Positions 40,290 through 60,634 of a stretch of DNA of 64,000 bases are shown here, one piece after another. How positions within the stretch are numbered: position 1 is the first letter of the stretch; the number at the start of each line of letters is the position of its first letter. The position numbers and the translations under genes are program-made. The notes beneath the pieces are model-generated. The model was not told where the DNA came from and did no database searches. It saw nothing but the letters and a program-made list of their open reading frames with translations. The stretch comes from Candidatus Nomurabacteria bacterium (lineage in GTDB: Bacteria; Patescibacteriota; Minisyncoccia; Phycocordibacterales; JAACPR01), in assembly GCA_020632215.1 (NCBI GenBank), contig JACKFZ010000006.1, positions 12,574 to 76,573 of the forward strand, written 5' to 3'.

Positions 40290-41351
40290 TTAAATTAATT
40301 TTTCCAAAACATTTGGTTTAACAGAATGTAAGAATGCATTCTCAGCAGTAATCTCTCCTTTTCTCACTAAATCAGCTAAATTCCTATTCATATCAATCAT
40401 GCCGTGCTCAGAACCAGTCTCGATTATAGTATCTATCTCATGAGTTCTTTGATCTCGAATCAGGTTAGAGACAGCATTAGTATTGATAAGTAATTCGTAA
40501 GCAGGGATCAAACCTCCAGAAATTCTCGGAATAAGTCTTTGTGAAAAAATAGCTGTTAGAGAGCTAGCTAACTGAATTCTTATTTGATCTTGTTGTTCAG
40601 CCGGAAATGAGTCGACGATACGATCAATGGTCTGAGCGGCATTATTGGTATGTAGAGTAGAAAGCACAAGGTGACCAGTCTCAGCTGCAGTAACAGCAGC
40701 AGAGATAGTATCCTTACCTCTCATTTCACCAACCAAAATAACGTCGACATCTTGTCTAAATGTTCCGGTCAAAGCAGTATAAAAATCTTTGGTATCAATC
40801 CTGACTTCTCTTTGATCAATGATAGACTTCTGTGGCTTGTAAACATACTCAATTGGATTTTCGATGGTAATAATATGATCGGATCTTTCTCTGTTAATCA
40901 AATCAACCATAGCAGCCAAAGTAGTGGTTTTTCCTTGTCCTACAGGACCTACCACCAAGAAAAATCCCTGCTTCTTACGAGCAAAAGTCTCAAGAACAGA
41001 AGGTAGTCCTAGATCTTCCAAAGTTTTTATTTCATTTGGGATAAGTCTTAGAACAACACCAACTTGCCCTTGTTGAATAAATGCATTGCCTCGAAACCGA
41101 TTGCCATCATCATGTTGATAAGCAAAATCTAATTCTTTGTTAACATCAAAAATAGATTTCAAGTCACCCAACACCATAACATCTAGAAATCCTTTCATGT
41201 CTTCTTTGGTGGAAGATTCCATATTCAGAAGTGGTAACAATTCACCATCAACTCGAATGGTAGGTTTACGTCCTTCAGCCAAGTGAAGATCAGAACCTCT
41301 TTGCTTTGTTACCACATCGATTATTTCTTTTAATTTATTTTTATAATCCAT
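40290..41351 (-). CDS. pilT: twitching-motility (retraction) ATPase PilT
   Basis: Walker A LVVGPVGQGKTTTLAAMV, ITIENPIEY, and a size (353 aa) typical of PilT. Confidence 0.8.
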   Translation of the reverse strand: MDYKNKLKEIIDVVTKQRGSDLHLAEGRKPTIRVDGELLPLLNMESSTKEDMKGFLDVMVLGDLKSIFDVNKELDFAYQHDDGNRFRGNAFIQQGQVGVVLRLIPNEIKTLEDLGLPSVLETFARKKQGFFLVVGPVGQGKTTTLAAMVDLINRERSDHIITIENPIEYVYKPQKSIIDQREVRIDTKDFYTALTGTFRQDVDVILVGEMRGKDTISAAVTAAETGHLVLSTLHTNNAAQTIDRIVDSFPAEQQDQIRIQLASSLTAIFSQRLIPRISGGLIPAYELLINTNAVSNLIRDQRTHEIDTIIETGSEHGMIDMNRNLADLVRKGEITAENAFLHSVKPNVLEKLI

Positions 41352-49494: not shown

Positions 49495-49651
49495 ATTATT
49501 TTAATTAATTGATTAGATTATAAGTGAAAGAAAAATTCAGCACAACATCATATAAAACAAGTATAAATACAGGTAATCAACCCAAGGTTAAAGAATATCA
49601 AAAGCCCATTATAAAATTGTGATTAGATCACTCCGATACTTTGTTTTTACT

Positions 49652-49845
49652 GCGGTGTTTTTTGAACGAAGTTCGAACATTTTTTGAGCAAAACCTTGAA
49701 AACTAATTTGGACTCGGCGGGGCAAACTATTTTTCTGGGGAAATGGAATTGCCCCGCCTCGGCTTTCTTCCCGCCCGCAGGAGGGGTCTGGGGAGGAATG
49801 CGGGCGGGATTTTGAACCTTTCCTTTTTCGCTTCCGAATTTCGTG
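49652..49845 (-). repeat. copy 1 (inverted) of the ~194-bp GC-rich structured repeat A
   Basis: Reverse complement is identical to 58467..58659 along the portion compared by eye (the ~130-bp core). Contains two long GC hairpins (tcccgcccgca...tgcgggcggga and gaggcggggcaa...ttgccccgcc). The track ORF 49647..49868 is most likely not coding. Confidence 0.8.
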
Positions 49846-49868
49846 CCAGTTGAAAACTGGCGCGCCAC

Positions 49869-50459
49869 CTAATAATACTTCAATTTTGAATAATGCAATT
49901 TGTCGTGTGCTTCAAACAATATCTTGATCGCTTTTTTTGCATTTTTTTCTATTTCATTTTGTAAAACACTTGATTCAGTCCACATAAACGCATTTTTTAT
50001 TGAATCTTTAAATTGCGGTCTCGTTCCTTTTTTGTCTGTTGTGTTTTCTTTGCTTATCCCGTGAACAAATTCATTCCTTAAATCAAAAAGCGTCACTAAT
50101 TTTTCAAATAAATCTTGATCAATAATTTTCTTGTTTTTTGCGGCTTCTAAAATTTTCCATCCAGTTTTTGTTTTCGCCGTTTCTTCATCAACTGGATTTT
50201 GATATGGCAAATCAAGCAATTTTGCAAGTTGTCGCTCTATTGTTACGGCGCACATTATAATACTTGCCACAAAATCGCCCACCAAAAAGGCGTGGCGCGC
50301 TTCTTCAAAGCAGGAATGAACATCGGGAGAAGAAAGATAGTCTTCATTTTCTGGGTTGTAATTGTCCAAAAGAAAACGCAAGCGCTCTTTTACCTCTTTT
50401 TCGTTACTCCGGATATAATCTTTCCAATACTGATCAATTTGTGTTTGGGTGTAGTGCAT
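49869..50459 (-). CDS. HEPN-motif protein (putative RNase) co-operonic with type I R-M
   Basis: R-x4-H signature RNEFVHG at residues ~129-135 of 196. Start codon lies 3 nt after the hsdR stop. No other domain recognised. Confidence 0.45.
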   Translation of the reverse strand: MHYTQTQIDQYWKDYIRSNEKEVKERLRFLLDNYNPENEDYLSSPDVHSCFEEARHAFLVGDFVASIIMCAVTIERQLAKLLDLPYQNPVDEETAKTKTGWKILEAAKNKKIIDQDLFEKLVTLFDLRNEFVHGISKENTTDKKGTRPQFKDSIKNAFMWTESSVLQNEIEKNAKKAIKILFEAHDKLHYSKLKYY

Positions 50460-50461
50460 AA

Positions 50462-53400
50462 TTAGATATCGGTGTATTTTTTAAAATTTTCCGCTTGCTC
50501 AAATATTTCTTTAAACACCTCATCTTTTGGCACAGGAGGATAGCCATTTTTATCAAGCGTAAGAATTAAATCAACTTTCAATTCGGCTTTGATATTATCT
50601 CTAGCTGACCAATCTGTGTATCTGGCTTTATCGTCGACAATTTTTTTAATCTCTTGCGACAATATAATCAATTTATCTTCGGGATATTCAAATTTATATT
50701 TTTCAGCAACTGCCTTCAAAATATCGTAAAAGGCTTTTTCTTCAAAATCTATCCCTAACCCTTCAAAAGATTTTCTTTCTTCTTGTAGTTGCTTGAATAG
50801 ATCAGCAAATTTATCTGCCACATCATCCAAAACATGACTTTGAAATACGTCAAAATCTTTTCGTTCGTTATAAAGTTCAATAAGTTTTTTTAGTTTCTTT
50901 GAAAAATCAACACCTTTAATTCGGTTTGTCTTCTTAAACTCATTAATAGCTTTTGCTAAAAGTTTTTGTAATAGTTTGATTTTCGTGTTTGGCAATTTAA
51001 TTTTTTCAATTTTTGCCAAATATTCATCACTAAAAATATCTGCGTTATTTTCCGGTTTGTTTTTATCAAGTTTAAATATTTCTTCTACTCCTTCACTAAT
51101 CAATGCTTCTTGTATCATCTGACGCACTTTTTCATTCATTTGTGCGGTATCCGGCGCATCTCCCTTGGTTAGTTTGTGAATAATTGATTTAATGGCAAAA
51201 TAAAAATGAATATAGTCTCGTTCAATCTGCGAAATTTTCTCACTTGCACAACAAAGATCATAAGCAGACCGCAACTTCTTCGTTATAGACATGAAGCGAT
51301 TCTCTAAATCAGCCGTAACTTGAACAAATTCAGCTGACCGATTCAAGCAATTCAATTTTTCCAAAGGAGAACCCTCAAAAAAAGGCTTGGTATCAAATCC
51401 ATGAAATAATTTTGAAAGCAAGTCGAGTTGATCTTTCACAATCCCCACCGCTTTATCTGCATCTGCAAAATCATCGCCATGCACCTTACTATATTTTGCA
51501 AGAGCAATATTCATGTTGCTTTTTATTCCAATATAATCAACTACCAAGCCAACTTCTTTACCTTCATAAACACGATTGACGCGAGAAATTGTTTGAATTA
51601 GTGAATGTTGTTGAACAGGTTTGTCAATATAAATCGCCTCCAAAAAAGGCACATCAAAACCAGTAAGCCACATATCAACGACAATAGCGATTTTGAAATT
51701 TGATTTTGCATTTTTGAACTGGCGATCAAGCTCTTTTCTATCTTCTTTTGTCCCTAGCATGTCATACAGCGCTTTTTCATCATCCTTATTGCGAGTCATC
51801 ACCATTTTAATCTTCTCAATTGGCTTGATTTCTCGCTTTTCCTCTGTAGTGAGTTTTGCGCCTTCCTCGCATGCTTTAATTTCCCCCCATTCTGGTCTAA
51901 GTGAAATCACTTCTTTATAAAAATCGTAAGCAATCGGTCGGCTAGAGCAGACGAACATAACTTTACCTTTGACGCTTGCTCCTTCCTCAATTCGCTTTTC
52001 ATAATGTTCAACAAAATCTGTCGCTAAAAGTTTCAATCTCTTTGGATCACCCAAAATAACTTCCATCTGCGCTACAGCTTTTTTGCTTTCTTCTATTTGA
52101 TATTCATTTGCTCCTTCTTCTGCGCATTTGGCATAGTACTCTTCAATTTCCTTCAATTTAGCCTCATTTAATAGAACCTTCGCTGCTCGTCCTTCATAAA
52201 CAATTCTCACGGTAATTTCATCTTCTACCGATTCTTTCATTGTGTAGGCGTCGGCAACTTCACCAAAAACAGACAATGTGCCGTCAATCGGCGTACCGGT
52301 TACGCCAACATAAGTCGCATTTGGCAAAGAATCATGGAGGTATTTTGCAAACCCATATTTAACTTCCACACCCTTATCGGTAACCTTTAATTTTTGATCA
52401 AGATTTATCTGTGTTCGGTGTGCCTCATCGGAAATACAAATAACATTTGGCCTATCAGTCAAAAGCTCCGTATCTTCAGTAAATTTTTGAATCGTTGTAA
52501 GGTATACACCACCACCTTTGATACCTTGTAAGTGTTTTCGCAAATCAGCACGACTTTCAACGCTCAAAATCTTTTCTTCATTGATAAAGTTTTTGGCATT
52601 GGTAAATTGCTCAGACAATTGATCGTCCAAATCGGTTCTATCGGTAATGAGTACAATTGTCGGGCTAGATAATTCAACGCTCTTCATCAAGAGGCGTGAT
52701 AAATACAACATCGCAAAACTTTTACCCGATCCAGTCGCTCCAAAATATGTTCCACCTTTTCCGCTTCCGGTTGGCTTCATGTTCACCTTTATGCTTTCAT
52801 AGAGCTTTCGAGCGGCGTAATATTGCGGATAACGACAAACGATTTTTGCTTCGCTTTTTGAAGTGTCGGGGAAGTAGATAAAATTATGAATAACATCAAG
52901 TAGCCTGTTTTTGTCAAACAATCCTTTAATCAAGGTATAGAGTGAATCAATACCCTCACTTGGTTCATCAGTATTATTTACTTTTCTCCACGCGTAGAAA
53001 AAATCATAAGGTGAGAACAAAGACCCCATTTTGTTATTCACGCCATCGCTTATGACGCAAAAAGCGTTGTATTTCAGAAGTTCAGGAATATCTCGGCGAT
53101 AACGAACGGTCAATTGAGTATAGGCGTCTTTAATCGTGCAATTTTCTTTGACGGCACTTTTGAATTCAAAAACCACCAAAGGCAAGCCGTTTATATACAC
53201 GATTCCATCAGGAATTCTTTTTTCAGTTCCTTGAATTTCTAATTGATTAACAATTTTGAATATGTTATTCGAAGCAGTTTCAAAATCCAAGAGTTCAATA
53301 TAAATATCTTTTTGACTGCGATCTTCTCTTTTGAGAGTAAAGCCGTCAGCAATCAAACGAATAATATCCCTGTTGCTTTCATACAGCGCCGAGCTTGGAT

Positions 53401-53608
53401 AGAGATCGAGTTTTCGCAAAATTGAATCAATTTCATTTTGCGTTATACCAACACCCGCATATCTATTTTGAAGAAACGCACGCAAATCGTCACGCAGCAA
53501 AACATCACTCATTTCTTTGTGAATGGTTTCTCCGTGATGGTGCGGGATATCCACTTCTCCAAAAAGTTCTATAACCGCTTGTTCTAATGTTTCTTCAGTA
53601 AATTTCAT
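50462..53608 (-). CDS. hsdR: type I restriction enzyme R subunit
   Basis: Walker A GATGSGKS, DEAH box ISDEAHR, helicase motifs, length 1048 aa. Confidence 0.85.
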   Translation of the reverse strand: MKFTEETLEQAVIELFGEVDIPHHHGETIHKEMSDVLLRDDLRAFLQNRYAGVGITQNEIDSILRKLDLYPSSALYESNRDIIRLIADGFTLKREDRSQKDIYIELLDFETASNNIFKIVNQLEIQGTEKRIPDGIVYINGLPLVVFEFKSAVKENCTIKDAYTQLTVRYRRDIPELLKYNAFCVISDGVNNKMGSLFSPYDFFYAWRKVNNTDEPSEGIDSLYTLIKGLFDKNRLLDVIHNFIYFPDTSKSEAKIVCRYPQYYAARKLYESIKVNMKPTGSGKGGTYFGATGSGKSFAMLYLSRLLMKSVELSSPTIVLITDRTDLDDQLSEQFTNAKNFINEEKILSVESRADLRKHLQGIKGGGVYLTTIQKFTEDTELLTDRPNVICISDEAHRTQINLDQKLKVTDKGVEVKYGFAKYLHDSLPNATYVGVTGTPIDGTLSVFGEVADAYTMKESVEDEITVRIVYEGRAAKVLLNEAKLKEIEEYYAKCAEEGANEYQIEESKKAVAQMEVILGDPKRLKLLATDFVEHYEKRIEEGASVKGKVMFVCSSRPIAYDFYKEVISLRPEWGEIKACEEGAKLTTEEKREIKPIEKIKMVMTRNKDDEKALYDMLGTKEDRKELDRQFKNAKSNFKIAIVVDMWLTGFDVPFLEAIYIDKPVQQHSLIQTISRVNRVYEGKEVGLVVDYIGIKSNMNIALAKYSKVHGDDFADADKAVGIVKDQLDLLSKLFHGFDTKPFFEGSPLEKLNCLNRSAEFVQVTADLENRFMSITKKLRSAYDLCCASEKISQIERDYIHFYFAIKSIIHKLTKGDAPDTAQMNEKVRQMIQEALISEGVEEIFKLDKNKPENNADIFSDEYLAKIEKIKLPNTKIKLLQKLLAKAINEFKKTNRIKGVDFSKKLKKLIELYNERKDFDVFQSHVLDDVADKFADLFKQLQEERKSFEGLGIDFEEKAFYDILKAVAEKYKFEYPEDKLIILSQEIKKIVDDKARYTDWSARDNIKAELKVDLILTLDKNGYPPVPKDEVFKEIFEQAENFKKYTDI

Positions 53609-53610
53609 AA

Positions 53611-54741
53611 TTATTTAGTCGTTAAAGTATCAACCACTCCTTTCATCAAAACCGGACACAAAGGTGTAATCATATTTTTTAAATCTTCATTGAGTTTTTT
53701 TCTTGATTCCAAAACATAATGAATGGCAACAATTGATTTTTGCACTTCAATATCGGGTATTGGCAATCTTACTTCGCACATATCCTCCCAGTTAAATGTT
53801 TCTCTAGCACTACCCCAAGAATGAAAACGCGCGTATCTATCAAAATCAGAACGAGTGAACCAAAGATAAAGAAATTCAGGCAATAATTCTTCTTTTTTTG
53901 TAATCTCAAAAACGGGATAAATTTTTGAAACGATAAAATCTTCTTCTGTATTTAATGAAATTGGAATTCTTTCTCCCATTCTCGCCGTATTAGGGTTGAA
54001 TACAAATTGACCAACTTTCAAAAGTTTATAGCCAGAAAGTTCTACATCAGTCATGTTAGCTTTTGGCTTTATCAAAATTTTATGGATTGATACACCTCTT
54101 ACTTTACTAAGGGGCAAACCATAATTTTCGTATTCAGATTGCTGAATATAATCACCCAACCTCTTCAAGTCTTTTTTCTTTGCCAAATCTTCAATAAAAG
54201 TATCACAAATCAATTGCAAATCATCCAGACTGCTCTCATAACATTTCTGATTGCGAAGTAGTTCGTTATAAACCGCCACAACATTTTTTTGAACCCCGAT
54301 ATCATCTGGAATTGGTATCTCAATTTCACAAAATCGCTCCCATTCCAAACCACCCCTAACACTGCTATCACTAACATACCAAGAATATCTATCAAATTCC
54401 GGTTTTTGGAAAATCATCATTAGATATTCGGGAAGTAGCTTATTCGAATCTAAAACTTCAAAAGTAATATATGCAGGAGAAACAAGCGCAGGTTTATCCT
54501 CTGAATATAAAGATATCGGCAATCTTTCATCTCTGCCAACGTGCATAATGTTGCAAGCAAATCTATCTTTTCTAACTATTTTGTATTTTGATAAATCAAG
54601 ATCGGTTTGATTTGCCACCGACGGCATATAATTCTTGGTGATATTGATACCCAAAAGATTGCTTATCTCTAAGTTCTTGTTTCGCTCGTCTACGAGTTGA
54701 ATATAATCGCCAAGTTTTTTATAATTCAATTTCATAGCCAA
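53611..54741 (-). CDS. hsdS: type I restriction-modification specificity subunit
   Basis: Two target-recognition half-domains of similar length, separated by a conserved helical spacer. Sits between hsdM and hsdR. Confidence 0.8.
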   Translation of the reverse strand: MAMKLNYKKLGDYIQLVDERNKNLEISNLLGINITKNYMPSVANQTDLDLSKYKIVRKDRFACNIMHVGRDERLPISLYSEDKPALVSPAYITFEVLDSNKLLPEYLMMIFQKPEFDRYSWYVSDSSVRGGLEWERFCEIEIPIPDDIGVQKNVVAVYNELLRNQKCYESSLDDLQLICDTFIEDLAKKKDLKRLGDYIQQSEYENYGLPLSKVRGVSIHKILIKPKANMTDVELSGYKLLKVGQFVFNPNTARMGERIPISLNTEEDFIVSKIYPVFEITKKEELLPEFLYLWFTRSDFDRYARFHSWGSARETFNWEDMCEVRLPIPDIEVQKSIVAIHYVLESRKKLNEDLKNMITPLCPVLMKGVVDTLTTK

Positions 54742-56299
54742 GATGTTTAAATGCCTCCATTAGTTTTTCTTGCGAATCCTTTTCCTCTGCAAGAATATTG
54801 GTGAATTGTTTTTGAATCCGCTTCATTTCTTTGTCGTAGTTAATTTTGCTATCACGATCAACAAATTCAATGTATTTGCTCGGAATGAGCGACCAATTAT
54901 TTTTCTCAATTTCTTCGATGTTTGCGCTATAGCAAAACTCCGGAATATTTTTGTAGCTTTTTTCAAAACCCTCTCTCTGCCAGTTGTGATATGTAGAGAC
55001 TACCTCTTGGATATCGGCATCAGTGAGCTGAATATACTTTTTTTCGTATTCTTCACCTTTTCGGCGTAAATCCATAAACAATATCTCATCTTGTCTGTTG
55101 CGGTATTTCACCATTGCACCATTATGTTCAATGCTTCTAGCTTGCTTGTTTTTATTAAGAATCCAGAGCGTAACACTAATATCCGTGCTATAGAACATAT
55201 CTCGTGGCAAAACGATAATTGCTTCTACAAGGTGATTTTTGATAAACTGTTTTCTTATTGCAACCGTGTCAGGATCTCCAAGTGCGCCATTGGCAAGCAA
55301 AAATCCGGCTACTCCATTTGAGGAAAGCTTGGATGCCATATGTAAAATCCAGCCATAATTTGCATTACTAACCGGAGGCACATCATATCCCGCCCATCGC
55401 GGATCAGTGGTGAGTTCATTTGCACCTCGCCAATCCTTTTGATTGAATGGCGGATTTGCCATTATAAAATCTGCTTTGAGATCTTTGTGTTGATCTTTGC
55501 CAAAAGTATCAGCGGCGGTTTCTCCCAAATTTGAAGAGATGCCACGAATAGCCAAGTTCATTTTTGCCAGTTTGTATGTAGTCGGAATACTTTCTTGTCC
55601 GTAAATCGCAACTTCTTTGGTGTTTCCGTGATGCGCTTCAATAAATTTTATTGATTGCACAAACATACCGCCGGAACCACAGCAAGGATCATAGATTTTA
55701 CCTTTGTATGGCTCAATAAGTTCAGCAATCAGATTGACTATATTTTTGGGAGTATAAAATTCACCTTTACCTTTTCCTTCTGCGATCGCAAACTTTCTCA
55801 AAAAATATTCGTAAATTCTGCCGATAATATCGTGGGACTTATCTTTGAGTGTATCAATTTTGTGAATTTCATCTAATAAGGCTCCGAGTTTTGTAGTATC
55901 AAGATTTAATCGTGAATAGTAGTTATCTGGCAAAGCGCCTTTGAGTGCAGGATTCTTTTTTTCTACAGTAAATAATGCCGTATCTATTTTTATTGAAATA
56001 TCACTTTGTTTGGCGTTTTTTATCAAATAACTCCATCTTGATTCTTCGGGGAGATAAAACACGTTTTTCATCGTGTAAAAATCCACCATCTCCAGATATT
56101 TTTCTTTACCCTCGGCGATAAGTTCATTTCTTCGTTCCTCAAATTTATCACTGGCAAATTTTAAAAATATCAAGCCGAGCACAACGTGCTTGTATTCAGA
56201 AGGCTCAACAGTTCCCCGAAGTTTATTGGCAGATTCCCAAAGAGATTCTTCAATACTCTTCTGCTTCTTTTCTTTTTTAGGTTTAGTAGTTCTTGTCAT
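54719..56299 (-). CDS. hsdM: type I restriction-modification N6-adenine DNA methyltransferase subunit
   Basis: N-terminal HsdM_N (LWESANKLRG), SAM motif I DPCCGSGGMF, and motif IV FIMANPPFN. Confidence 0.85.
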   Translation of the reverse strand: MTRTTKPKKEKKQKSIEESLWESANKLRGTVEPSEYKHVVLGLIFLKFASDKFEERRNELIAEGKEKYLEMVDFYTMKNVFYLPEESRWSYLIKNAKQSDISIKIDTALFTVEKKNPALKGALPDNYYSRLNLDTTKLGALLDEIHKIDTLKDKSHDIIGRIYEYFLRKFAIAEGKGKGEFYTPKNIVNLIAELIEPYKGKIYDPCCGSGGMFVQSIKFIEAHHGNTKEVAIYGQESIPTTYKLAKMNLAIRGISSNLGETAADTFGKDQHKDLKADFIMANPPFNQKDWRGANELTTDPRWAGYDVPPVSNANYGWILHMASKLSSNGVAGFLLANGALGDPDTVAIRKQFIKNHLVEAIIVLPRDMFYSTDISVTLWILNKNKQARSIEHNGAMVKYRNRQDEILFMDLRRKGEEYEKKYIQLTDADIQEVVSTYHNWQREGFEKSYKNIPEFCYSANIEEIEKNNWSLIPSKYIEFVDRDSKINYDKEMKRIQKQFTNILAEEKDSQEKLMEAFKHLGYEIEL

Positions 56300-56301
56300 A
56301 C

Positions 56302-58068
56302 TTATATTTTATTAAATGCCTTTCTTATAACTCCCGCCATGAGTTTTCTTCTTTCTTGGAGGAATGTATCATATTCAAGCTGATAAAAATTTTCTGGAAT
56401 AGCGTGCTCTGCCAGCATTTCTTTAATTTCGCTCTCGCCGAACCTTTTTTGCACCATTGCAAAATATTCGCTTGGTTTGTCGTCGCTGATTTCGATATTA
56501 TCTTCAAATTCCAAAAATGTCAGATTGGCAATCTGGTTTATTTTTGCCTTGTCTTTGTTCTTATCAAATCCATATTTTGAAATGAGATAATTTCGTGGGA
56601 ATATGTGATGTTTTTCCAAACGCTTCTTTTTAATCTTTAAAGACGGATCATAAAGATCGCCTACAAGTTTGCGAGAAAATAAAACTGGCGAGCCGAGCTT
56701 GTTGAGCGCGGCATAAAAAGCATTTGCCTCTGGGCTTCTTGCTGATGATGTTTCCATTTGCCCGACAAGCGTAATATCCCAAAAATCATTGGTTAAATTC
56801 TCACCAATTATCTTTTCAAGTCCGCTGATAAATCCGTCGTGGCTAAACTCTTTTATTCTGTTTAGATCCTTTTCAAAGGCGGTTTCTGGTGAAGAAGAAT
56901 ATCTACCTGTCAGAGAAGACATCACGAACCAGCGCCCGATAATTCTTTGCAATTCGTGATTTTGCGTATTGAAATTTTGTTTTCCAATAAGATAAAGAAT
57001 ATAGCTATACAAAACGGCATTTTTTGACGATATAAGTTCTTCATCTTTATATCCGCCACCAATAAGAATTTTCAGAAAACTTTGCCAATTCGTATTATCA
57101 AGGATAGTCGGCAAATTTAATTTCAATTTATCAAATTGATGCGTTCGCAATTCTTCTGAAAATTCTCCTGTTTCCATATCGCGTCCGCGAATAATGGAGT
57201 AGACATCTTTCATTTTTGCTCGGTGGAATGTCAGACCAACTAAAACGCGAAGCATATCGTCCGGATCGGGCTTTATCAAATAATTGAAAGACGAAAAACG
57301 AGTTTCTTTTTCTGGAATTTTTCTTGAATCAATACAAAACTGCTCAATTTCTTTCCTGCCCTCTTCCCAATAGACGGAAAGTAAAGTCAAAATGAAATCA
57401 GCTTGCGTCAAACTCACCCCTTGACTGTTTATGCGAACAAAAATATCCGAGACAATTTCTTCCTCTAAATTCGGGGCAATTTCAAGAGCCGTGAGAGGAT
57501 ATTTATTGATGTTTATAAGCGATTGAATGTTTGAGGAAATTGTCTTTTCCTCTTCCTTTGTGATTTCTCTTTTTTCTTTAAGTGCCGAAATGAAATTGCT
57601 AATGATAGCAAAATCACCCTCGCCAGACCAAAGAGCTGAAAGGTCGGGAATATATTCGGGGTCGCGATCGGTCGCCGCGTCGCCGACTTTGAAAAGTGCG
57701 TCTATTGGGCGAAAAGCAATTTTGATAGCTTTGCTTTCATAATCAGGGGTCAAAACTTCCTGATTTTTCATAACGGCAAAAAGAGCCGTCAATCTTTGCT
57801 GTCCGTCAATTATCAAAAATCTCGGAATTTTCCTTTTCTTCTCATCAAAGCCAATATTTTTATAATCACTGCGATTGGCATTTTCCCAGAAAAGCAAATA
57901 TCCGATTGGATAACCACGATATATTGAATCAAATAAATCTCTAACTTTTGAGATTTTTTTATACCAAACGAACGGGCGTTGAATGTCTGGCAAAGCAATA
58001 TCGCCAATTTCAATATCGTCCATTAGTTTTCCAATCGTATAATCTGTTGTTTTGAATACTTGTGCCAT
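56302..58068 (-). CDS. GmrSD-like type IV restriction endonuclease (DUF262 + DUF1524)
   Basis: N-terminal DUF262 with DGQQRLTAL and C-terminal His-Me finger EKHHIFPRNY...ANLTFLEFEDN. Confidence 0.7.
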   Translation of the reverse strand: MAQVFKTTDYTIGKLMDDIEIGDIALPDIQRPFVWYKKISKVRDLFDSIYRGYPIGYLLFWENANRSDYKNIGFDEKKRKIPRFLIIDGQQRLTALFAVMKNQEVLTPDYESKAIKIAFRPIDALFKVGDAATDRDPEYIPDLSALWSGEGDFAIISNFISALKEKREITKEEEKTISSNIQSLININKYPLTALEIAPNLEEEIVSDIFVRINSQGVSLTQADFILTLLSVYWEEGRKEIEQFCIDSRKIPEKETRFSSFNYLIKPDPDDMLRVLVGLTFHRAKMKDVYSIIRGRDMETGEFSEELRTHQFDKLKLNLPTILDNTNWQSFLKILIGGGYKDEELISSKNAVLYSYILYLIGKQNFNTQNHELQRIIGRWFVMSSLTGRYSSSPETAFEKDLNRIKEFSHDGFISGLEKIIGENLTNDFWDITLVGQMETSSARSPEANAFYAALNKLGSPVLFSRKLVGDLYDPSLKIKKKRLEKHHIFPRNYLISKYGFDKNKDKAKINQIANLTFLEFEDNIEISDDKPSEYFAMVQKRFGESEIKEMLAEHAIPENFYQLEYDTFLQERRKLMAGVIRKAFNKI

Positions 58069-58072
58069 ATTT

Positions 58073-58282
58073 TTATTTCATTAAATCATCAAGCGAAACG
58101 CCAAGAGCATCCGCAATTTTTTTAACTGTTTCAATGGTGGGGTTGGGAGTAGAGCCAGCTTCAATTTTGGCAATCGTATGAAAAGCCAAATCCGCCTTTT
58201 TTGAAAGCTGATCCTGCGAAATGCCGAGCTTGTTTCGGTATTTCTTTATATTGTCTGCGATTGTGGATTTTTCCTTTGACAT
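58073..58282 (-). CDS. XRE-family helix-turn-helix transcriptional regulator
   Basis: NIKKYRNKLGISQDQLSKKADLAFHTIAKIEAG. First gene of the operon, with a 4-nt gap to the GmrSD-like gene. Confidence 0.7.
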   Translation of the reverse strand: MSKEKSTIADNIKKYRNKLGISQDQLSKKADLAFHTIAKIEAGSTPNPTIETVKKIADALGVSLDDLMK

Positions 58283-58466
58283 ATTCGTATAGTTTTACTA
58301 TTATAGTTGTATAGTATTAAAAATATCACTTATCAATAGTTAGTATATGAAATTTTTAGCATTTAGTCAAAGAAAAATTTTAGGGAGTTCCTTAGTGTTG
58401 CCCGCGAATGGGTTGGGTGGGTCAAGGGCAACATCTTCTTTGGCGGCGCATTTTACTTTGCAAAAT

Positions 58467-58659
58467 ACGAAATTCGGAAGCGAAAAAGGAAAGGTTCAAA
58501 ATCCCGCCCGCATTCCTCCCCAGACCCCTCCTGCGGGCGGGAAGAAAGCCGAGGCGGGGCAATTCCATTTCCCCAGAAAAATAGTTTGCCCCGCCGAGTC
58601 CAAATTAGTTTTCAAGGTTTTGCTCAAAAAATGTTCGAACTTCGTTCAAAAAACACCGC
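58467..58659 (+). repeat. copy 2 (direct) of GC-rich structured repeat A
   Basis: Inverted repeat of 49652..49845. The track ORF 58347..58916 runs through it. Confidence 0.8.
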
Positions 58660-58789
58660 CAATTTTCACTTTTTGTGAAATCGTAAGAAACAGCCTCGGC
58701 GCAAAGCGCCTCGGCATGGTATTTTTCCGCAATTTTGAAGGCATTTTTGAAATCCAAAACCAAAGTGCGGTCGGCAATGCGGAAGTTCG
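58656..58789 (-). repeat. repeat B: inverted duplicate of the last ~134 bp of the serine recombinase gene
   Basis: Reverse complement equals 60273..60406. Ends in the hexamer ccgcca, which is the 3' end of tRNA-Ser. Confidence 0.8.
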
Positions 58790-58903
58790 CAGAGCGAAGC
58801 TCTGGCAAAATGAAATTTTGCAAACCAATCTTTTTTCTTTCGCCTTTGGCGAAAGGTTGAGCGTATTTTTCTTTGATTGCCCAAAAACTAACTATCAAAA
58901 AAT

Positions 58904-60634
58904 ATGGACAACATAAATTTACAAACCAAAAAGATTTTTCTCTATGCCCGTAAATCCACGGACGAACCCGAAAGGCAGGTTTTGAGTATTGAGGCGCAAA
59001 TGTTTGAATTGCGAGAATATGCCAAAAAAGAGGGATTGAATATCGTCCGTGAATTTGTGGAAAGCAAAACCGCCAAAGAGCCGGGCAGAGAGATTTTTAA
59101 TGAAATGGTTGCAAGCATAGAGAAAAATGAAGCCGAAGGAATTTTAGCGTGGCACCCCGATAGATTGGCGAGAAATAGCATAGACGGCGGAAGAATAATT
59201 TATCTAGTAGATACTGGTAAAATAACCACGCTAAAATTTCCCACTTTTTGGTTTGATCCGACACCGCAGGGAAAATTTATGTTATCAATCGCTTTTGGGC
59301 AATCAAAATATTATGTGGATAATCTTTCGGAAAATATAAGGAGGGGTATTCGCCAGAAATTGCGAAATGGAATATGGCCCGCTTGGGCGCCACTCGGATA
59401 TTTGAACGACAAAAATCAGAGAAAAATTGTGGTTGATAAGGAAAAAGCAAAATATATAAAGCGGGCTTTTGAAATGTATGCAACTGGCGAATACCCCCTC
59501 TCTCAAATCCGAAAGATTATCAATTCCTTGGGCTTGGTTGGCAAGAAAGGCAAAATGCTTTCCGTCTCCAATTACCAATATATGCTCAAGAACAAAATCT
59601 ATTACGGCGTGATTGAATACAATGGCGAATTGTATGACGGAAAGCACGAACCGATTATCACAAAGAAACTTTTTGATTCCGTTCAAGAAGTGATGATGAA
59701 TAAAAGCAAACCGAAAACGCCAAAATTGAAACCTTATGTGTATAGAGGATTTTTCCGTTGCGGAGAGTGCGGTTGCTTCATCACTACCGAAACCCAAAAA
59801 GGTCACAACTATTTGCGATGTACCAAGCGGAAAAATCCTTGCCAGCAAAAATATGTCCGCGAAGAAATCATCACTTCTCAAATAAAAAAAGAAATCAAAA
59901 AAGTTTCTTTGTCTTCCGCTTGGGCAAACGCTTCAATCAATTATTTTGAAAACGAAAAAATGAAAATTGCCCAAGCGGAAAGCTCTTTCGCCCAAAAAGC
60001 GAGAAATGAGCTGGTAGAAATAGAAACGAAACTTGATCGCTTGCTTGATTTACAGTTAGACGGCAATTTGTCGCAAGCGGAATATACCGCTAAAAAACAA
60101 AAGATCATTCTCGCTAAAAAAGATTTGGAAGAAAAAATCTCGTCTTTTGGGCGAAAGAGCAATAATCGGTTCGAACTTGCCATTGCCTTTCTAAAAGACG
60201 CCAACCAAGCCGAAAAATACGCTCAACAAGAAAATCCCGAAAGGATTCGGGATTTTCTCAAAAAGATTGGTTCGAACTTCCGCATTGCCGACCGCACTTT
60301 GGTTTTGGATTTCAAAAATGCCTTCAAAATTGCGGAAAAATACCATGCCGAGGCGCTTTGCGCCGAGGCTGTTTCTTACGATTTCACAAAAAGTGAAAAT
60401 TGGCGGAGAGTTAGGGATTCGAACCCTAGAAGGGCTATAAACCCTTACCTCGTTAGCAGTGAGGCGCTTTCGACCACTCAGCCAACTCTCCAAGTAGAGC
60501 AAAATGTAACATATTTTATTCTTTTTTTCTATCTCCATTTATATGCTATATTCTTTTATGGAAAAAACGCCCATGACAACAAGAGAGACCCTTCAAGGAC
60601 TCCCGTCCTTCGAATACTTGGTGGGTCTAGTTAG
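58904..60634 (+). CDS. large serine recombinase (resolvase/invertase N-domain, recombinase domain, zinc ribbon, coiled coil)
   Basis: Catalytic YARKSTDEPERQ...SIEAQ, zinc ribbon CGECGC...C, and a long coiled coil. The frame stays open through the antisense tRNA-Ser, so the true C-terminus is uncertain. Confidence 0.7.
   Translation: MDNINLQTKKIFLYARKSTDEPERQVLSIEAQMFELREYAKKEGLNIVREFVESKTAKEPGREIFNEMVASIEKNEAEGILAWHPDRLARNSIDGGRIIYLVDTGKITTLKFPTFWFDPTPQGKFMLSIAFGQSKYYVDNLSENIRRGIRQKLRNGIWPAWAPLGYLNDKNQRKIVVDKEKAKYIKRAFEMYATGEYPLSQIRKIINSLGLVGKKGKMLSVSNYQYMLKNKIYYGVIEYNGELYDGKHEPIITKKLFDSVQEVMMNKSKPKTPKLKPYVYRGFFRCGECGCFITTETQKGHNYLRCTKRKNPCQQKYVREEIITSQIKKEIKKVSLSSAWANASINYFENEKMKIAQAESSFAQKARNELVEIETKLDRLLDLQLDGNLSQAEYTAKKQKIILAKKDLEEKISSFGRKSNNRFELAIAFLKDANQAEKYAQQENPERIRDFLKKIGSNFRIADRTLVLDFKNAFKIAEKYHAEALCAEAVSYDFTKSENWRRVRDSNPRRAINPYLVSSEALSTTQPTLQVEQNVTYFILFFYLHLYAIFFYGKNAHDNKRDPSRTPVLRILGGSS
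60273..60406 (+). repeat. repeat B' (recombinase 3' coding end)
   Basis: Inverted partner of 58656..58789. Its right boundary coincides with the 3' end of tRNA-Ser. Confidence 0.8.
60401..60490 (-). tRNA. tRNA-Ser (anticodon GCU) with encoded CCA
   Basis: Reverse complement reads ggagagt...anticodon loop cTGCTAa...a long variable arm...T-arm GGTTCGAATCC...actctcc-g-cca. Confidence 0.75.

Follow-up and report, generated by a model that had tools for sequence, protein, structure and literature searches.

A minimal HEPN protein encoded at the 3′ end of a type I restriction-modification (R-M) operon was recognized in a 64,000-nt stretch of DNA from a Candidatus Nomurabacteria bacterium (GCA_020632215.1, contig JACKFZ010000006.1, positions 12,574–76,573 of the forward strand), hereafter called the window. 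The gene is a portable 3′ module of R-M operons and not the particular partner of HsdR, since the same protein is found with varied R-M types. The reading favored here, to which we assign a probability of roughly 55%, makes the protein a HEPN ribonuclease that gives the R-M defense cassette a second effector, directed at RNA. DUF4145-like HEPN proteins “in operon with R-M” were described by Anantharaman, Makarova, Burroughs, Koonin & Aravind in 2013 (PMC3710099), and the window gene is a new example of the HEPN/R-M linkage predicted at that time, not a new kind of system. The link itself and a licensing model for it had thus already been proposed; documented here are an unannotated family and the swapping of modules around it. 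With 196 aa and no sensor domain, the protein provides a very compact test case for a prediction now twelve years old, namely that restriction enzymes are backed up by HEPN RNases. The features of the operon and its surroundings are collected in Table 1.

Table 1. Features of the R-M cassette and its surroundings (positions are those of the window)
Feature	Position	Strand	Evidence or remark
Inverted-repeat arm A′; outer end is the putative island boundary (attR-like)	49652..49844	.	193 nt
Conserved 24-nt stretch with GCCAGTT/AACTGGC hairpin, directly past the HEPN stop, inside the putative island	49845..49868	-	Kept with the gene in type I and type III cassettes
HEPN gene, minimal DUF4145-like, 196 aa, ATG start, last gene of the operon	49869..50459	-	ORF list
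Rx4H motif codons, R128-N-E-F-V-H133-G134	50058..50078	-	Read from sequence
hsdR stop/HEPN start junction, TAA-TT-ATG	50457..50464	-	2-nt spacer
hsdR, type I restriction subunit, 1048 aa	50462..53608	-	Pfam HSDR_N, SWI2_SNF2, T1R_D3-like, T1RH-like_C (8e-92)
hsdS, specificity subunit	53611..54741	-	Pfam Methylase_S
hsdM, methyltransferase subunit	54719..56299	-	Pfam HsdM_N, N6_Mtase
GmrSD-family type IV restriction enzyme, same operon	56302..58068	-	Pfam GmrSD_N (1.6e-31), GmrSD_C
HTH_3 (XRE-type) regulator, first gene of the cassette	58073..58282	-	Pfam HTH_3 (3e-17)
Inverted-repeat arm A	58467..58659	.	100% complementary to 49652–49844
Second recombinase 3′ end, truncated and with the native C-terminus; runs across arms B and A	58605..58898	-	
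Large serine recombinase	58904..60634	+	Pfam Resolvase, Recombinase, Zn_ribbon_recom
Inverted-repeat arm B′, abutting the tRNA 3′ end (attL-like)	60273..60406	.	134 nt, 100% complementary to 58656–58789 (arm B)
tRNA-Ser(GCT), putative integration target of the island	60401..60491	-	ARAGORN

Profile searches with the query itself stayed below every curated threshold. DUF4145 (PF13643) was matched at 12.4 bits (E = 0.17; gathering threshold 23.1), HepT-like of Pfam at 13.3 bits (E = 0.069; threshold 23.5), HEPN_RiboL-PSP at a likewise sub-threshold E of 0.2, and the NCBIfam equivalog HepT_toxin at 14.7 bits (E = 0.021; cutoff 60). The interpretable sub-threshold matches in Pfam and NCBIfam were to HEPN-clan families only. 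In the query itself, the clan hit for which the initial annotation had proposed a Pfam search fell short of all curated limits. A scan against PADLOC-DB v2 returned no defense family at E values up to 10, and PDB sequence searches with both family profiles gave no significant match. The predicted structure is an all-α up-down helical bundle, the fold of the HEPN clan (Pfam CL0291), and HEPN proteins make up the top of the Foldseek list against the PDB, with the HepT structures 5yep, 7ae2, and 7ae8 among the best matches and no E value at or below 0.001.

The clan link of the query is transitive and runs through relatives detected by profile. The close family comprises 41 clusters at 90% identity, one of them assigned to Candidatus Dojkabacteria, and, if one plainly erroneous JGI label is set aside, all are unnamed or labeled “hypothetical protein”; a gap in annotation is filled here, as the query is missed by the thresholds of Pfam, NCBIfam, and PADLOC. 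Four HEPN families recur at E < 1 among 35 close members, 20 of which match DUF4145, merely at that level (best E = 0.0015). A profile search of 1.84 billion representatives retrieved 180 relatives at E < 1e-3, nearly all of them stand-alone proteins of 170–210 aa. Within an alignment of 71 relatives (18–35% identity to the query), DUF4145 is matched by 23 (E < 0.01, best 1.2e-8) and HEPN by 11. Two relatives exceed curated cutoffs: P0049 (E = 2.8e-13 to the family profile) scores 35.3 bits against DUF4145, above its cutoff of 23.1, and P0045 (E = 4.8e-19) scores 22.1 bits against PF05168 HEPN, for which the cutoff is 22. Judged from these comparisons, the window protein is a divergent, minimal member of the HEPN superfamily nearest the DUF4145 group; because its own score lies below 23.1 bits, it is filed as DUF4145-like and not as a member of PF13643.

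The initial annotation had described a stand-alone HEPN-motif protein with RNEFVHG in a predicted helical region near residue 130, and this description is borne out by the fold, the conserved Rx4H, and the profile matches of the relatives. The heptapeptide occupies residues 128–134 at the C-terminal end of a predicted helix spanning residues 115–133 (AF2, mean pLDDT 81), and RNEFVH at residues 128–133 has the Rx4-6H form of catalytic HEPN domains. Shuffling of the protein produces at least one Rx4-6H in 47% of cases, so the weight of the motif comes from its conservation and the fold. R128 and H133 are the sole invariant columns in the alignment of 71 relatives, which settles in its favor the check on motif conservation that had been named at the outset; R26, E53, G61, E75, and A174 are near-invariant there. 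When 35 close members are aligned, R128 and H133 are at least 90% conserved and E53, H56, T73, and E75 are invariant. As had also been stated, the protein contains no NTPase or sensor domain, in keeping with the stand-alone build of its relatives, although about 45 aa at its N-terminus, R26 among them, form a conserved helical extension to the core. The gene is under purifying selection: among eight homologues, the seven pairs with measurable divergence gave dN/dS values of 0.12–0.27, and the eighth (L015, 0.70) is nearly identical to the window gene, which makes its ratio uninformative.

The HEPN gene is tied to the R-M operon, as had been recognized initially, being co-oriented with it and tightly abutted. 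The junction with hsdR reads ...ATC TAA TT ATG CAC..., such that the ATG begins at the third base past the stop and the spacer is 2 nt; the start “3 nt after” the hsdR stop in the initial annotation is correct in this sense. A specific, stoichiometric coupling to HsdR had been derived from this spacing and does not hold up, since the same 2-nt TAA-TT-ATG junction also joins hsdS to hsdR in the same operon. The stop-TT-ATG junction (TAATTATG) is found again at hsdS–hsdR and at 41351 in the window, whose GC content is 35.6%. A Shine–Dalgarno-like site precedes only 6 of the 41 long ORFs of the window. Because the hsdS–hsdR junction is identical and Shine–Dalgarno sites are rare, the tight hsdR–HEPN spacing reflects the style of the operon and genome and is nothing special. 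The missing Shine–Dalgarno sequence was likewise considered as support for coupling and set aside as uninformative, as the organism seldom uses such sites. No internal promoter or terminator signal above shuffle expectation was found around the HEPN gene. Cotranscription with the operon, probably followed by translation through termination–reinitiation, is plausible from the arrangement and has no specific bearing on the ratio of HsdR to the HEPN protein.

To place the gene in its wider context, 57 related loci were examined together with the window; six were too short to judge, and 52 were informative. In about 45 of the 52, the HEPN gene is part of an R-M operon, either internally or as its 3′ end. 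It follows hsdM-hsdS-hsdR in the window, L006, L007, L014, L015, L022, and L023, and an EcoEI-type R gene plus a fused methylase-specificity (M-S) gene in L037 and L010. Type III mod-res genes precede it at 19 loci, including L001–L004, L016, L017, L020, L021, L024, L028, L029, L031, and L041–L048, and it is placed between mod and res with 4-nt overlaps in L013 and L055. A PLD-SNF2 helicase gene and an Eco57I/MmeI-type methylase gene stand ahead of it at 12 loci, including L005, L012, L035, and L052. Single arrangements are an Eco57I-type methylase, an AAA_22 ATPase, and a 325-nt gap before the HEPN gene (L026), DndB upstream and Mrr downstream (L057), and the order hsdS, unknown gene, HEPN gene, AAA_13 ATPase, hsdM (L025). 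No R-M genes are in view in L008, L009, and L011/L039, and three informative loci are ambiguous, L018 with mod present and res missing, and L027 and L056 with upstream proteins that have no Pfam match. Almost all partners are ATP-dependent systems with SF2 motors, and the gene appears to be a portable 3′-terminal add-on to ATP-dependent R-M of type I, of type III, and of the kind that pairs PLD-SNF2 with an Eco57I-type methylase. A tblastn search of plasmid and phage collections found no homologue.

Exchange between R-M types is most directly seen in a comparison of the window with L001. The HEPN protein of L001 (P0002), encoded behind a type III Res gene, is 90% identical in amino acid sequence to that of the window behind the type I HsdR gene, and nucleotide identity of 94% begins at 50464, where the upstream stop codon starts, and continues to 49653, with unrelated sequence upstream. 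A stoichiometric or specific tie to HsdR, as initially annotated, finds no support in this pair or in the members that follow an Eco57I-type methyltransferase or fused M-S gene, lie between mod and res, or have no R-M neighbor. The TAA-TT-ATG junction itself also follows the type III Res genes of L001, L017, L021, and L028. The spacer between R-M and HEPN genes measures 2 nt in type I and most type III loci; it widens to 5 nt at L024, which is also of type III, to 6 nt in the Eco57I-type arrangements, and to 26 nt behind the fused M-S gene. Two allele groups of the HEPN protein, one of 196 aa and one of 191 aa lacking five residues past the motif, each occur with both type I and type III systems. 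Near-identical proteins with type I and type III systems, and members about 50–57% identical with SNF2-PLD, amount to natural swap experiments. Even the “orphan” loci L011/L039 keep a 40-nt fossil that matches the M-S gene of L037/L010 at its 3′ terminus and suggests descent from an R-M-linked ancestor. The HTH gene that opens the window cassette has a counterpart at the head of type III cassettes as well. A GmrSD copy 91% identical to that of the window is present in L024 (375–2151), ahead of a type III system and the HEPN gene, which is further evidence of module shuffling.

Other subgroups of the HEPN gene carry conserved flanks of their own, next to the gene in L037, L010, L011, and L026 and downstream in L006, L024, and L025. 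In one subgroup, 40 nt upstream and a GC-rich hairpin element downstream are common to loci with different neighbors; another has a shared terminator-like element. Directly past the stop of L057, whose protein is 36% identical in amino acid sequence, a CACGAAATTC-containing stretch is found as in the window.

By what is known of catalytic HEPN domains, the protein is most likely a metal-independent ribonuclease with R128 and H133 as its active site. HEPN RNases form composite Rx4-6H sites across dimers (summarized in PMC13017515), and that of the window protein is probably likewise shared across a homodimer. The enzyme would be inactive in normal cells and switched on during infection, with an outcome of the abortive-infection type. 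Since one and the same protein accompanies unrelated restriction enzymes, its trigger is more likely to be a shared feature or a general signal of infection or damage than HsdR. For that reason, and because the protein follows different subunits, direct control by HsdR is disfavored.

A more specific form of this mechanism borrows from PrrC/EcoprrI, in which the RNase is silenced by the R-M enzyme and freed when phage blocks restriction (summarized in PMC3710099). By analogy, the R-M complex might silence the HEPN RNase until restriction is blocked, a proposal that we hold only tentatively. An RNase responding to restriction failure is not a new idea, as Anantharaman et al. already proposed PrrC-like licensing in 2013 (PMC3710099), with reference to 16 or more R-M-linked HEPN clades. 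The window protein resembles the proteins of that study in its HEPN fold, Rx4-6H, R-M operon, and proposed role as a PrrC-like RNA-directed backup, and relatives of its family score above the PF13643 threshold. It differs in that the query and the 41 close clusters remain below the DUF4145 threshold, that it is free-standing and not fused to REase or helicase modules, that it bears the conserved 45-aa N-terminal helix, and that its family is exchanged across a fixed junction between systems of type I, type III, and SNF2-PLD. With PrrC and RloC it shares the placement of a HEPN-type RNase gene in a type I R-M locus, although the window gene comes directly after hsdR and the linkage is not exclusive to type I. 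PrrC and RloC, however, carry a large N-terminal ABC-ATPase sensor, whereas the 196-aa window protein has no P-loop domain, and prrC lies inside the hsd genes, whereas the window gene is terminal. At the type I locus L025 (1–6559), the HEPN gene adjoins a gene for an 801-aa AAA_13 ATPase between hsdS and hsdM; such a pair would correspond to the two halves of a PrrC/RloC-like architecture in separate genes.

Other known systems offer partial parallels. BxaP, a BREX-associated DUF4145 protein, was shown to confer phage defense through abortive infection (PMC10799925) and, like the window gene, represents an accessory DUF4145/HEPN gene attached to a methylation-based defense system. It differs in an extra HEAT-like C-terminal domain (gene ORF376, PMC10799925) and in its link to BREX instead of classical R-M, and no sequence match between BxaP and the window HEPN protein was detected. 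HepT, of the MNT-HEPN type VII toxin–antitoxin modules, resembles the window protein as a small HEPN RNase with Rx4H, and it supplies weak profile matches and is among the best structural matches. In contrast to HepT, the window protein has no MNT nucleotidyltransferase antitoxin gene as its neighbor, and neither do its relatives at R-M-linked loci. L008 does encode a classical HEPN/NTP_transf_2 pair, but as a separate unit 2 kb from the family HEPN gene.

An unlikely competitor to the R-M-linked reading is that the protein acts as an autonomous abortive-infection HEPN RNase, sensing a phage component directly in the manner of RAZR and HepS; it would itself be co-regulated cargo of R-M operons and defense islands, with no functional cross-talk to the restriction enzyme. 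This account accommodates the appearance of the same protein behind mechanistically different systems and subunits (R, Res, methylase, and fused M-S), and some members and distant relatives do occur alone in settings that resemble defense islands. The five distant relatives sampled are free-standing, three beside type II R-M or other defense genes and two not, and relatives of this kind have long intergenic regions upstream. A precedent is RAZR, a single-gene DUF4145 system activated by phage proteins, in which the catalytic R and H of the HEPN domain are needed for abortive-infection defense and ssRNA is cleaved (PMC13017515). RAZR and the window protein have in common a DUF4145-type HEPN domain with catalytic R and H. 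Unlike the window protein, RAZR possesses an N-terminal zinc-finger sensor, is encoded by a single gene that is not linked to R-M, and is activated by phage ring proteins; the window protein has no separate sensor domain beyond the 45-aa N-terminal helix, which counts against direct sensing. Also against an autonomous RNase, the position of the subfamily is strikingly constant, 2–6 nt past the last R-M gene, through repeated exchange of R-M types. Were the protein nonetheless an ordinary stand-alone abortive-infection RNase, it would be a routine addition to the HEPN catalogue.

The constant terminal position could be read differently, as that of an RNA-level operon regulator in which the HEPN RNase processes the R-M polycistron, for example so as to adjust the R:M ratio or hold back restriction once the island has reached a new host. 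In favor of this, the gene always closes the operon, the mobile cassettes that carry it need methylation before restriction, and a controller-like HTH gene opens the cassette. An Rfam search, however, found no conserved RNA element in the operon, and members of the family also exist without R-M. We know of no precedent for a HEPN protein in R-M autoregulation, and such a role is considered quite improbable.

A 193-nt perfect inverted repeat starts 24 nt past the HEPN stop and brackets the HTH-GmrSD-hsdMSR-HEPN cassette, and a 134-nt inverted pair (58656–58789 and 60273–60406) brackets the large serine recombinase. Judged from the sequence, 49652–60406 appears to be an island of 10.75 kb that has inserted at tRNA-Ser and whose outermost cargo gene is the HEPN gene. 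The 193-nt repeat, at 97% identity, also brackets type III cassettes in L001/L016 (227–419 and 5409–5600) and L003 (3432–3623 and 8613–8748). In other loci, too, the HEPN-side arm ends in ...AACACCGC and is then followed by at least nine different flanks. The chromosomal flank LMWPc-VanW-PspC-LiaF is joined to the HEPN-side arm in L001 but to the opposite, HTH-side arm in L003, so both orientations of the repeat-flanked R-M cassette exist in nature. The 193-nt repeat is a frequent breakpoint of metagenomic contigs, and because of these breaks the window alone, among L001–L057 and the window, has a full-length recombinase beside the cassette.

The location of the attachment site was suggested by homologues of the recombinase, of which at least 7,959 were found at E < 1e-50. 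They split into classes of C-terminus exactly after ...NWR, residue 501, and the codons TGG CGG at the split are the complement of the tRNA 3′ end, CCGCCA; the recombinase gene thus seems to hold the attachment core within its own 3′ end. The native class ends in ...CFLxEVRTFFxxNP, the product expected from the window after a joining of arm B′ to arm A′; the same C-terminus is encoded by the truncated copy at 58605–58898. In the other class, the ending ...R(G/E/V)RDSNPR... is the antisense of a tRNA T-arm, and the window recombinase ORF continues past residue 501 across arm B′ and into antisense tRNA-Ser. Integration would accordingly replace the last 17–20 codons of the recombinase gene. At 58467–58898, inside the putative island, a complete copy of the joined att arms (A.B) stands in inverted orientation, together with a truncated, partly diverged recombinase 3′ end. 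This copy creates both perfect inverted-repeat pairs and may be the remnant of a second element.

Two candidates within the GC-rich stretch that follows the HEPN gene were rejected. Arm A′ holds two GC-rich hairpins, and its + strand encodes the last 20 codons of the native recombinase C-terminus. An RNA gene or RNA antitoxin at 49652–49868 was dismissed, as an Rfam search of this stretch returned nothing and it consists of the inverted-repeat arm with its hairpins and these 20 codons. A 73-aa ORF at 49647–49868, which corresponds to a 105-aa gene in L001, was weighed as a partner or antitoxin; it lies in the inverted repeat, opposite a strand made up of the recombinase C-terminus and terminator hairpins, and it is absent from other HEPN subgroups.

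The island illustrates how tiny-genome bacteria of the candidate phyla radiation (CPR) move and reshuffle defense cargo. An ambitious extension of the favored HEPN effector reading, which we regard as improbable, combines the two lines of observation: the small HEPN protein would be a universal “restriction-failure” effector that reads an SF2-motor feature common to HsdR, Res, and SNF2-PLD, such as stalled or inhibited translocation. It would form a plug-in 3′ module exchanged with the att-proximal end of CPR integrative islands, in which R-M cargo is swapped within a conserved HTH...HEPN frame, the 193-nt repeats allow the cassette to invert, and the gene for the serine integrase shares sequence with its own attachment site.

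A further locus, L063 (1–11596; GCA_040772285.1, a 1.06-Mb contig), contains two tandem recombinases of the same family, each after an HTH gene and divergent cargo, which is a DpnII-type type II R-M system in one case and GreA/MFS/Na-Ca exchanger in the other. The recombinases measure 519 aa, the native length, and 531 aa, with a C-terminus that runs into antisense tRNA (RDSNPR).

HEPN toxins are common in toxin–antitoxin modules, and the HEPN gene sits at the very edge of the 10.75-kb tRNA-integrated island, beside the att-like arm, from where it might act as an addiction toxin that stabilizes the island by post-segregational killing instead of serving in defense. This role is judged highly doubtful: no adjacent antitoxin was found, neither an MNT gene nor a conserved small ORF, and the family also occurs in cassettes without these repeats. 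R-M systems, moreover, already provide addiction. For the HEPN gene as such, no antitoxin or sensor partner is evident.

Some HEPN domains are noncatalytic, and many classical ones are not RNases, as in sacsin, MtlR, and the C-terminal domains of kanamycin nucleotidyltransferase. That the window protein is such a noncatalytic domain, an adaptor subunit that binds nucleotide or protein within the restriction complex, is the least credible of the alternatives, for although some non-RNase HEPN domains are among its structural matches, exactly the two catalytic residues are invariant family-wide, and a single adaptor for unrelated enzymes is hard to picture.

Truncated, split, or chimeric copies of the family also occur (L038 and L041–L048; proteins P0038, P0039, and P0040). 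P0039 ends within the motif, and P0038 keeps the N-terminal half joined to another C-terminal half with an R-x4-H of its own (RCEYAH).
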